A stretch of 64,000 bases of DNA, taken from positions 32,001 to 96,000 of the forward strand of contig CAVQRZ010000006.1 in assembly GCA_963715335.1 (NCBI GenBank). The letters are read 5' to 3'. Position numbers and translations under genes: made by a program. Positions 3,691 to 46,416 of the stretch are shown here, in pieces. This DNA comes from an uncultured delta proteobacterium (GTDB lineage Bacteria > Desulfobacterota > Desulfuromonadia > Desulfuromonadales > BM103). Position 1 is the stretch's first letter. Each line of letters starts with the position of its first letter. Below the pieces are notes generated by a model. That model did no database searches. It was given only the letters and a program-made list of their open reading frames with translations, and was not told the DNA's origin.

Positions 3691-4686
3691 ATGAAAACTG
3701 TCACACGCACCCTGTCCCTGATCAGTGCGCTCGCACTGGTCGCAGCCTTTGCCCTGCCCAGCACGGCGCTCGCGGAAAAAACCCGTCTCGGTTTTGGCGG
3801 CGGCCCTGAAGGGGGCACCTTCCAGTACTTCTCCAACGGGATTGCTTCTCGCCTGTCGAAGATGATCCCCGATGTGGAAGTCTCCAACATGGCATCGGCC
3901 GGCTCGGTCGAAAACCTCCGCCGCGCCAATTCCGGCGAAATTGACTTCGGCATCTCCTATTCCGGCGACACCTATCTTGGTCGCAATGGCAAGTTGACCA
4001 ACGATACCACCGTATACCCCAATGTCATGGCCATGGCATTTCTTTACGGTGCTCCTGCCCATCTGGTCGTACTTGAGAAAAGCGGCATCAACACGGTTGC
4101 TGACCTCGAAGGCAAGCGCATTGCCGTTGGTGACTCAGGCTCCGGTGCCGCCGCCGCGGCCCAGCGTTATTTCAGCTCTATCGGCCTGTGGGATAAGATG
4201 AATGTCGAGTTCATCGGCTACAGCAAGGCCGCAGCAGCAATCGGTGACGGCCTGATCGACGCCATGTGGGTGTTTGCCGGTTTCCCCAACAGTTCGGTGA
4301 TCCAGGCAGCCGCCAGCAACAAGATCAAACTCCTCTCCACCTATGAAGCTGGGGAAAAGGGCGGCGCCTTTAAAGAGTACCCATTCTATGCCCCGCTGAC
4401 CATCCCTGCCGGCACCTACAGTGGGGTCGACTATGACGTCAAGTCCTTCCAGGATTCCGCCCTTTGGGTCGCCGGCAAGCATGTCGCTCCCGAGCACGTT
4501 TATGCGGCCCTGGCCAACATTTACACCGAGGATGGCCTCTCCTACATGGTCAAGGTCAAGAGCACGGCCAAGTCCATGTCGGTGGAAGGAGCCCTCACCG
4601 GCATCGTCACCCCGGTTCACCCCGGCGCTCAGAAGTTCTGGAAAGAGCAGGGTCTAACTCTGACCGAAGCACAAATGGGTATGTAA
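3691..4686 (+). CDS. TAXI-family TRAP solute receptor
   Basis: Start reassigned to ATG 3691 behind an AGGAGG RBS. Signal peptide ends ALA; motifs GGPEGGTF, SAGSVENL, VADLEGKRIAVG, TIPAGTYSG and PVHPGA. Confidence 0.92.
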   Translation: MKTVTRTLSLISALALVAAFALPSTALAEKTRLGFGGGPEGGTFQYFSNGIASRLSKMIPDVEVSNMASAGSVENLRRANSGEIDFGISYSGDTYLGRNGKLTNDTTVYPNVMAMAFLYGAPAHLVVLEKSGINTVADLEGKRIAVGDSGSGAAAAAQRYFSSIGLWDKMNVEFIGYSKAAAAIGDGLIDAMWVFAGFPNSSVIQAAASNKIKLLSTYEAGEKGGAFKEYPFYAPLTIPAGTYSGVDYDVKSFQDSALWVAGKHVAPEHVYAALANIYTEDGLSYMVKVKSTAKSMSVEGALTGIVTPVHPGAQKFWKEQGLTLTEAQMGM

Positions 4687-44675: not shown

Positions 44676-45404
44676 TCAAACTGATGGCTCGCTTCTCACC
44701 CATGCCTGGATACTAAGAATATCCAGTTTCTGTATCTCAGAAAATTCAAGACCCAGCCCGGACGACGCATGGTTTTTAAAATTATCTTTTCTGTTGATCC
44801 AGGCCACTCTCCCTTTGCACTTTATCAACGCCTTCTCCTGGCTGAGTTGAAACTCAAGGTGCAGTTCAGAGCCTGTCGCAAACTGCTCTTCGGTCTCTAA
44901 AAACACGCCACCCACGGATATGTCGAGAAGGGTCCCTAAAGACATTTCTTCTGGATTCTTGCCGAACTTTGCTGACGTTTTAATCGTCGATCTTTTGCCG
45001 GACCACCCTGGTAAACTCAAATATTGTTTACATATCTGGAGAACATTCTCCCTGGTTAACGGTTTGTGGATAACTTCATCGCATCCTGCGGTTTTACAAC
45101 GCTCTATATCTTTGGGATAGTTGCTGCTCGTCATCATGACAATTGGTGGAGGTCGCACGTCGGCAGCGCTCTTTATTTGTCTGCATGCTTCATCCCCGTC
45201 GCCTTCCGTCATGTACAAGTCCATCAGGATCAAATCTGTCTTGGTTTTTTTGACAATTTCAACAGCTTCGGGGCCGCTTCGTGCAAGCAGAATATTAACC
45301 TGCTCCCTCCGGAAAAGGTCTTTAGCCAGCCTGAGAAACAAGGGGGTGTCGTCTACAATCAAAAGAGTCTTTGAAAACATGGAAAGAATTTTTTTTGTAT
45401 ACAT
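44676..45404 (-). CDS. Response regulator receiver + PilZ domain protein
   Basis: LIVDD, LMDLYM, MMTS, HKP receiver motifs; DISVGG and GLGLEF PilZ motifs. Confidence 0.85.
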   Translation of the reverse strand: MYTKKILSMFSKTLLIVDDTPLFLRLAKDLFRREQVNILLARSGPEAVEIVKKTKTDLILMDLYMTEGDGDEACRQIKSAADVRPPPIVMMTSSNYPKDIERCKTAGCDEVIHKPLTRENVLQICKQYLSLPGWSGKRSTIKTSAKFGKNPEEMSLGTLLDISVGGVFLETEEQFATGSELHLEFQLSQEKALIKCKGRVAWINRKDNFKNHASSGLGLEFSEIQKLDILSIQAWVRSEPSV

Positions 45405-45656
45405 AGGGCTAATCCAATTTTTGGCAAAAAAAACCCGCCAGACAGCATCATGCGGACAATAGCGGTTTGGTGTTCATTGCTTATCTGCTTGCCTACTCAT
45501 CATCCCATCCCCCAGGCCAAACACCGCATCAAGACAAAACTAATCTACACTATAGGGTGCAACAAGGTAAAGATTTGCGTTTTATTTGTACCCCTGCACT
45601 ACTGCTTCGCATGTCAACTCATGCTTAGTAAAAAATTCTCGGAATGACTGATTTAC

Positions 45657-45742
45657 GAGAAAAGCCCCACGCCGGGAGGAGGCTGTGGGGCTGCAGGTTG
45701 CATTTTTATTGCGGAGGAGAACATGAATAAGTACGTCCCTTT
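45657..45742 (-). ncRNA. Candidate ~85-nt small RNA with CU-rich anti-Shine-Dalgarno motifs
   Basis: Promoter TTGACA-16-TAATAT directly upstream; ends in hairpin agccccac(a)gcc-tcctccc-ggcgtggggct-tttctc; no complete ORF inside. Confidence 0.6.
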
Positions 45743-45748
45743 AACGAT

Positions 45749-45776
45749 ATATTACTGGCTTGGTCATGTATGTCAA
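45749..45776 (-). promoter_or_regulatory. Sigma-70 promoter of the candidate sRNA
   Basis: TTGACA-16 nt-TAATAT. Confidence 0.65.
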
Positions 45777-45864
45777 GCGGGAAATAGACACCCCTTAAAT
45801 TCTGCCAGAGCTGTCTGGTCTCAGCCAGGACAACAATTTGATAACGACACAGAACAGCAACAAC

Positions 45865-45901
45865 AAAAGAAAGGCGAGATGGAATCATCTCGCCTTTCTT
45901 T
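45865..45901 (-). terminator. Terminator of the ribosomal superoperon
   Basis: aaagaaaggcgagatg-gaat-catctcgcctttcttt perfect inverted repeat just after rplQ. Confidence 0.85.
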
Positions 45902-45906
45902 GTCGT

Positions 45907-46416
45907 CTACATTTTGCGCAACCATTTATCAGTCTTTTTTCGCTTCCTCAGCAGGGGCTTCCTCAGCAGGGGCTTCCTCAACAACCGGGGGCACCTCGAC
46001 ATCGCAGGTTTAGCCGCCTTCTTTGCGGGAGCTTTCTTCTTTTTCGGCTTGGCAGTGAACTCCTCTTCGACCAGTTCGATGACCGACAGGGAGGCGTTGT
46101 CACCGGAGCGGTGACCAAGCTTGATAATTCTCGTGTAACCGCCAGGACGCTCAGTATAGCGTGGCGCAATCGTATCAAACAGCTTATCAACGATTTTCTT
46201 GTCACGGACGACCTGCATGACGAGACGACGGGAGTGCAGGTCGCCACGCCTTGCCATGGTAATCAACTTTTCGGCCATCTTGCGCAGTTCCTTGGCACGG
46301 GCATCAGTCGTGGTGATCTTGCCGTGTTCAAAAAACGAGGTCACCATGTTGCGCATCATGGCTTTGCGATGACTGGTGTTGCGGCCCAGCCGCTTACCGG
46401 ATTTCATATGACGCAT
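45907..46416 (-). CDS. rplQ: 50S ribosomal protein L17 (C-terminal tail apparently frameshifted)
   Basis: MRH...[29 protein letters not shown]. Confidence 0.95.
45942..45980. repeat. 15-bp tandem repeat (2.6 copies) in the rplQ tail
   Basis: gcttcctcagcaggg x2 + gcttcctca; encodes EEAPA repeats in the shifted frame. Confidence 0.85.

Follow-up and report, generated by a model that had tools for sequence, protein, structure and literature searches.

An uncatalogued, multicopy family of predicted sRNAs in the Desulfuromonadales with a conserved promoter operator and a seed complementary to translation starts

The element studied here, located behind rplQ in a 64,000-nucleotide stretch of DNA from an uncultured delta proteobacterium of the metal-reducing, sediment-dwelling type (the window), belongs to an uncatalogued family of predicted sRNAs in the Desulfuromonadales. 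It probably acts as an operator-controlled, trans-acting translational repressor and is one of a multicopy set of promoter-operator-RNA-terminator units. The initial annotation had proposed a candidate trans-acting sRNA with anti-SD motifs at this place; beyond that proposal, the family is multicopy, its seed also complements AUG-AAG, and its promoter holds a conserved operator. The window's own genome is labeled G000, and other G numbers denote relatives. Counts out of 69 refer to distinct copies harvested from fetched loci, a subset of all matches, with a pattern that required promoter, operator, terminator shape, and a TTG-C-like start; because the pattern demanded a promoter, promoter counts among the 69 are biased upward, and kin are not independent in any of the family counts. 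The features of the window copy and its surroundings are the following.

45866 to 45901, minus strand: intrinsic terminator of rplQ, 16 pairs, insulating the sRNA promoter
45771 to 45776, minus strand: -35 hexamer TTGACA, found also in 67/69 harvested homologues (biased upward by the harvest pattern)
45747 to 45771, no strand assigned: 25-bp palindromic operator, filling the -35/-10 spacer and overlapping the -10 box
45749 to 45754, minus strand: -10 hexamer TAATAT, with TAAGAT, TAATAT, or TAATCT in 53/69 homologues (biased likewise)
45657 to 45742, minus strand: predicted sRNA of ~86 nt, its start placed 7 nt past the -10 box
45718 to 45739, minus strand: hairpin 1, GGGACGU/AUGUUCU, with loop ACUUAUUC
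45713 to 45730, minus strand: seed, reverse complement of GGAGGA-spacer-AUG-AAU-AA
45693 to 45712, minus strand: A-rich single-stranded linker of variable length
45657 to 45692, minus strand: terminator hairpin with CU loop and short U tail; family loop consensus CCCUCCU
45723 to 46013, plus strand: antisense ORF opening from the seed's complement (SD plus ATG), not conserved as a gene
45635 to 45664, minus strand: junction motif (G000 C6:77664, 19.8 bits)
44676 to 45404, minus strand: REC-PilZ gene, unconnected with the sRNA and preceded by a conserved leader of its own

The promoter (TTGACA at 45776-45771, a 16-nt spacer, and TAATAT at 45754-45749 on the minus strand) carries 10/12 consensus letters and is the best of 5 promoter-like sites between 44500 and 47000, where 2.1 are expected. 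The 86-nt stretch from 45742 to 45657 folds into a 5' hairpin of 7 bp and a 3' hairpin of 11 bp with a CU loop, with a z score of -2.70 on the minus strand versus -1.33 on the plus strand. The first CU motif, UCUCCUCC, lies at 45720-45713 and the second, CCUCCUCCC, at 45682-45674 in the terminator loop, both on the minus strand. The promoter, both hairpins, the two CU motifs, and the terminator were thus all located where the initial annotation had put them, and its claim of upstream insulation agrees with the 16-pair rplQ (L17) terminator at 45901-45866, 90 nt upstream of the -35 box. Both of the anti-SD motifs that it described are present, although the first stands 3' of hairpin 1 and outside its loop. 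Within hairpin 1 of the window copy, three consensus A-U pairs have become G-U, and its U tail comprises 4 U only, where 57/69 homologues have 6-9 U. CCTCCTCCC occurs 12 times in the genome. Of 57 CTCCTCCC sites, 2 pass a filter for hairpin plus U tail, and of these only the window element places the motif in a hairpin loop. Related cassettes, promoter included, were detected in relatives by BLAST; together with the rare loop-placed motif, these homologues indicate that the element is more than a chance arrangement. The orthologue in G002 is 99% identical to the window copy, yet reads CCUCCUCCU.

The fold is conserved in a strand-specific manner. A first, close alignment gave weak covariation, with 2 compensatory pairs, a number reached by 53/500 shuffles. 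Across 32 diverse 3' modules from several families, 7/9 terminator stem pairs are compensatory, which 0/500 shuffles equaled, and CCUCC in the terminator loop is nearly invariant. Where a single transition alters a pair, the product on the RNA strand is G-U more often than A-C, 24:6 for hairpin 1 (60/69 copies scored) and 25:3 for hairpin 2, these and the covariation counts being inflated by sequence relatedness. Conservation of the stem without the CU motifs, which the initial annotation had named as contrary to its reading, did not occur: CCUCC is kept and the stem covaries.

The label of cuckoo sRNA attached by the initial annotation has to be dropped. Cuckoo RNAs, as described for Alphaproteobacteria, carry CCUCCUCCC in every loop of 2-4 hairpins (PMC4615179); given that this definition needs the motif in each loop and that the exact nonamer is found in 1/69 homologues, the element is not a cuckoo RNA. 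The family's hairpin 1 loop, ACUU(C/A)UUC, is without the motif. A true cuckoo/ar14 homologue outside Alphaproteobacteria is therefore highly improbable in our estimation, even if, of all Rfam models, ar14 (RF02344) matches the element best (E 0.0039), since its 27.1 bits stand against a gathering score of 58.8 and 12 homologous or related loci gave no ar14 match at E 0.01, only an unrelated atoC match. At gathering score, Rfam finds 2 tRNAs and nothing else in the whole window. What stands of the initial proposal of a multi-target repressor is an anti-SD sRNA that is free-standing, likely acts in trans, and has two CU motifs, in a genome that encodes Hfq, on which the RNA may rely; the cuckoo kind does not.

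The distribution of the family was followed with R1, a covariance model built on 22 copies, among them the window copy, whose 104.3 bits are thus a score within the training set. G000 holds 5 full copies, and 5/15 of its R1 matches score at least 99 bits. R1 matches occur in 37/44 genomes of the host's taxonomic family, with 15/21 matches in G015 and 15/24 in G024 exceeding 80 bits. Class-wide, 28/141 genomes have R1 matches, mostly one per genome outside the host family and several of these beside a shared neighbor gene, with none in families f24 (0/36 genomes) and f25 (0/25). A model of the 3' module alone matched 61/70 other genomes of the order versus 11/70 in families f24-f27. The copies are thus several similar free-standing genes, each with its own promoter and terminator, as in the csRNAs of Streptococcus pneumoniae. 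In the literature searched, supplements aside, no description of the family was found; a Geobacter sRNA table may still list it.

Related RNAs share parts of this architecture. Variant RNAs have the same 3' hairpin and often a CUUCUUCA...CCUCCU seed, but other 5' hairpins or promoters; in genus g10, where the operator-driven copy is mostly missing, variants of this kind carry the CUUCUUCA...CCUCCU seed behind other promoters. Variants whose 5' hairpin bears a GUGGCA loop, with the same 3' hairpin, stand under the same operator in f12 loci (L159-L170) and occur also in L334; in G000 they have a different promoter (C5:53027-53160, C15:11900-12040, C19:100839-100957, and C28:15964-16099; L073, L075-L077). 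A truncated sibling at G000 C6:111301-111395, plus strand (L038/L082), keeps promoter, operator, linker, and CU-loop terminator without the 5' seed hairpin; the operator at C6:111306, considered as an ABC-transporter site, drives this truncated sibling instead. Outside the order, L326-L330 (f24, f26) contain hairpins with a CCCCUCCU loop and a U tail behind unrelated upstream sequence and are possibly distant relatives.

The family seed complements GGAGGU-spacer-AUG-AAG-AA, that is, SD, start codon, and codon 2, and this conserved complement of SD and AUG is a further property shared with the csRNAs. TCTTCAT is present in 52/69 copies, and CCTCC in the 5' part of 61/69 and in the loop of 55/69. 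Judged from its letters, the window copy has a seed shifted to anti-AUG-AAU with the predicted fold kept. The 16S 3' tail was not found in the assembly. Read on the plus strand, the seed forms a perfect GGAGGAG plus ATG at 45723, and this, with the short hydrophobic ORFs of some copies and the multicopy dispersal, would suit the antitoxin of a type I module whose toxin ORF opens from the plus-strand SD and ATG. We rejected this very unlikely reading for want of a conserved small antisense ORF: counted from the promoter, the antisense ATG is spread over all three frames (24/23/5 of 52), TCATG is missing in 17/69 copies, ORF lengths are scattered (20 below 15 amino acids, 6 above 45), and neither a conserved toxin peptide among the 69 copies nor, by eye, a shared plus-strand promoter in the downstream flanks was evident.

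One site is common to all sibling promoters, again as in the csRNAs, with a putative binding protein. The operator core reads TGAC-N7-GT[AC]A across the family and TGAC-N7-GTAA in the window copy. With a matrix built from copies outside G000, 13 sites of at least 19.8 bits were found in G000, all intergenic: those of the 5 copies and the truncated sixth, and sites at feoAB, aceB-aceA, a peroxiredoxin, yceI, two metallo-hydrolases, and a small ORF. Weaker sites occur at ccoN, a thioredoxin-like gene, and two Rrf2 loci. The operator precedes the peroxiredoxin gene in 24/26 orthologues and malate synthase in 12/14 (17 loci, 3 unparsed), against a background rate of 20/993 genes.

The operator is likely bound by an Rrf2-family repressor, and it presumably resembles IscR type-1 sites. 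A Fur box was rejected, the operator differing in sequence from the delta-proteobacterial WTGAAAATNATTTTCAW (PMC545781), which is present before the fur gene of G000, and an HgtR site was likewise rejected on sequence (PMC2817479). G000 has three full-length Rrf2 genes: the first, IscR-like but below the curated cut-off, in a cysE-rrf2-nifS operon; the second before cysK; and the third before a decaheme cytochrome gene. In much of the order, the promoter of the third gene itself contains the operator core (27 distinct sites), and the matrix of these self sites, for which the core was pre-selected by pattern and to which 12 loci contributed no site, ranks the five sRNA promoters 6, 12, 16, 22 (window), and 57 in the genome. 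The IscR-like gene's self site, conserved in 28/29 loci (one unparsed), also resembles the operator; its matrix gives four sRNA copies 9-12.5 bits (ranks 19-54) and the window copy 4 bits. This self-regulatory palindrome before cysE-iscR-like-nifS (G000 C23:112270 and L347-L375) is highly conserved across the order. We infer that the Rrf2 paralogue at G000 C19:133822-134262 fits best as the repressor, the IscR-like one being an alternative candidate. This assignment is weakened by genus g10, which keeps the operator at the peroxiredoxin gene (5/5) with no clear site at the third rrf2 gene; g10 failed as a negative control for the same retained operator and for its variant RNAs.

In f24/f25 genomes, the best homologue of the third paralogue is 36-39% identical and precedes cydA in 4/5. 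In Geobacter sulfurreducens, the rrf2 gene GSU1639, a possible orthologue of the third paralogue, is described as down-regulated alongside cydAB, a peroxiredoxin, and a metallo-hydrolase (PMC7726332). Rrf2 proteins are reported by the same source to sense via Fe-S clusters (PMC7726332), and cluster loss would then derepress the sRNA operator. A second conserved non-coding element lies 3' of the rrf2 gene on the opposite strand in L053-L056, L058-L063, L066, and L067; it is CU-rich with a terminator, making it another sRNA candidate, is not at that place in G000, and had no Rfam match in L053.

The rplQ locus records the history of the window copy. Behind rplQ, sRNA and PilZ gene are both missing in G011 and G015; G001 lacks the sRNA but has the PilZ gene, preceded by a leader of its own; G003 retains an sRNA remnant; in G004 the promoter is intact and the RNA decayed (50 bits); and in G000 and G002 the sRNA is intact. 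This pattern of presence and decay argues that the sRNA is not a PilZ leader and that the window copy is a recent sibling; it is a diverged, lineage-specific one, decayed in sister species. The attenuating leader of the REC-PilZ gene that the initial annotation gave as its alternative is accordingly hardly credible. The element does lie on the same strand, 250 nt upstream of the gene, and its tail of only 4 U may allow some read-through, but in G001, G003, and G004, where the sRNA is absent or dead, the gene still has a conserved leader of its own, and at several copies (e.g. L037, L003, L009, L019, and L025) the next gene is convergent. That leader (window 45420-45530, minus strand), conserved in G001, G003, and G004, shows a purine-rich stretch, a short uORF-like frame, which the window copy of the leader has interrupted, and, immediately before the start, a hairpin resembling a terminator; it is a possible attenuator. 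The rplQ tail (window 45907-46030, minus strand) is a 15-nt repeat region out of its relatives' E/A/P-rich frame, which suggests a frameshift or an assembly slip. Two metatranscriptome contig sets cover rplQ and not the element, as contigs only, at low depth and with small shares.

Copies of the sRNA are gained and lost rapidly, and many sit next to repeat modules. The junction motif recurs in the lineage, both behind many hairpins and where dispersed non-coding repeat modules end; its core follows 26/69 copies. Module A, a dispersed intergenic repeat of ~130 nt with 28 nhmmer matches in G000, lies upstream of at least 22/69 copies, 20 of which were its training set. It has a palindromic junction at its start and a GGCCACC...GGTGGCC hairpin with a U run at its end, and it forms co-oriented clusters among accessory genes (e.g. 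C5:54080-57130, with five in a row, and C43:32148-35635). Adjacency to module A and the junction motif offers a route of spread and supports the view that the element is a passenger or core of a terminator-hopping MITE-like repeat, along which most f1 copies, possibly the window's included, have spread with little regulatory effect. Neighbor genes that differ at almost every copy and the rplQ site, empty in three relatives and decayed in two, agree with it. We nevertheless regard this as unlikely, although worth keeping in mind, given that the matches in other families are mostly single and several share a neighbor gene, that the operator belongs to a real protein-coding regulon, and that the seed survives in variants with other 5' ends and promoters. 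Nor did viral contigs, plasmids, or phages match the element, and tyrosine recombinases, the sole transposase type searched, number only 2 in G000.

Under the preferred reading, an operator-controlled RNA that represses translation, the targets can be predicted. Duplex energies were pooled over the five copies for 2974 G000 start regions taken from heuristic gene calls. The top 3 of the 2974 are an octaheme cytochrome, a GSU2204-type cytochrome-associated porin, and a c7 cytochrome, all carrying CxxCH, at mean ranks of 2.8-3.2 before a gap to 12.5; PccH is eighth. For the heme content of these three, P is 1.5e-5 overall and 0.0027 when the comparison is confined to secreted genes with a strong SD, and 0/40 part-shuffled seeds bring 3 heme genes into their top 5. 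As a class, heme genes show no enrichment after control for secretion and SD strength (P = 0.40). With accessibility included, three copies keep all three genes in their top 10 and a fourth ranks them 2-17; the window copy ranks them 22, 23, and 117, and its top 10 contains no heme gene. Conservation of target pairing is only partial, orthologues in the top 1% numbering 12/25 for the octaheme gene (28 loci, 3 unparsed; 2 starts probably mis-picked), 9/31 for c7, and 4/16 for the porin (18 loci, 2 partial ones left out; two of the 4 from g10). The GGAGG-led genes at 3691 and 10726, which the initial annotation offered as local test cases, come 363rd and 453rd of 2974 in the window copy's ranking, and HU/IHF genes starting with Met-Asn-Lys found no support as its targets, with a best rank of 120 in G000.

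The top 150 predicted targets are rich in signal-peptide genes (32-39, with 18 expected) and, in the case of four copies, in Met-Lys starts (40-48, with 18.7 expected). Such enrichment, and the lack of it for heme genes class-wide, would also be expected of a broad, toxic-sRNA-like damper of translation that titrates many strong SD plus AUG-AAG starts, mostly of exported proteins, and slows growth during stress, the cytochromes being incidental; Burkholderia double-hairpin sRNAs do cover RBSs, and overexpression of one, ncS27, is reported to attenuate growth (PMC5688073). The clear rank gap behind the three cytochrome-related genes speaks against such a damper, as does codon 2, which is AAG in 23/31 c7 orthologues versus 91/324 Met-Lys starts in G000, and we think it improbable.

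For the repressor preferred here, the following course of events may be proposed, with the stress signal deduced from regulon content and general Rrf2 biology. Under O2 or iron-sulfur stress, an Rrf2-family repressor would likely leave the operator, and the freed promoter would yield an RNA of ~85 nt, which is predicted to pair over the SD and AUG-AAG of target mRNAs and repress their translation. The targets likely include periplasmic and outer-membrane cytochrome genes; the window copy would retain the fold, with cytochromes ranked lower. More speculatively, the Desulfuromonadales may possess a Fur-independent heme-sparing layer, in which an Fe-S-sensing Rrf2 repressor co-releases peroxide-defense genes and up to 15 or more sibling sRNAs, these stop the translation of periplasmic and outer-membrane cytochromes via SD-AUG-AAG at signal-peptide starts, and the dose has evolved by hitchhiking on a terminator-hopping repeat; we put this forward tentatively, as a possibility on the less likely side.

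Control of extracellular electron transfer by Geobacter sRNAs has been raised as a possibility from lists and predictions (PMC6013743). The family offers a defined RNA and operator, a candidate regulator, and candidate targets (c7, octaheme, and a porin-cytochrome conduit), and with these named, sRNA control of extracellular electron transfer becomes directly testable. At least 15 siblings in one genome exceed the three to nine given in the sibling-sRNA papers cited here, and the rplQ locus shows the birth and death of an sRNA copy inside one genus.

With respect to known systems, the family would work like the csRNAs or the betaproteobacterial double-hairpin RNAs, with RyhB-like logic, and is a member of none of them. 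It shares with the cuckoo/ar14/RSs0680 RNAs (PMC4615179) an anti-SD motif in a loop, variable stems, and multiple copies, but has one CCCUCCU loop, its other motif lying outside the loops. The S. pneumoniae csRNAs are described as five CiaR-dependent siblings of 87-151 nt that pair with the RBS and AUG and control targets additively (PMC4507080); the likeness extends to five similar siblings, one transcription factor site, and a sequence pairing with RBS and AUG, whereas control there is by the response regulator CiaR, and here the promoter spacer is occupied by an Rrf2-type operator. The csRNAs also belong to another phylum, with no sequence relation found (no Rfam match), and the copy number of the present family reaches at least 15. 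The RF02278 'toxic' sRNAs and Neisseria NmsR-A/B resemble it in the double hairpin and in CU-rich unpaired stretches that cover the RBS, and also in being multicopy, with three to five homologues per genome (PMC5688073). On the element, RF02278 scores 15.1 bits (E 2.3) versus a gathering score of 50, and, unlike RF02278, the family combines a conserved operator with an anti-AUG-AAG seed located in hairpin 1. Iron-sparing sRNAs beyond RyhB form a wider class of the same logic. The likeness to the RyhB type (PMC5688073) would lie in a metal- or redox-sensing repressor that likely releases an sRNA against iron-containing proteins; unlike that type, the family has no Fur box or HgtR site, and its predicted targets are exported c-type cytochromes.
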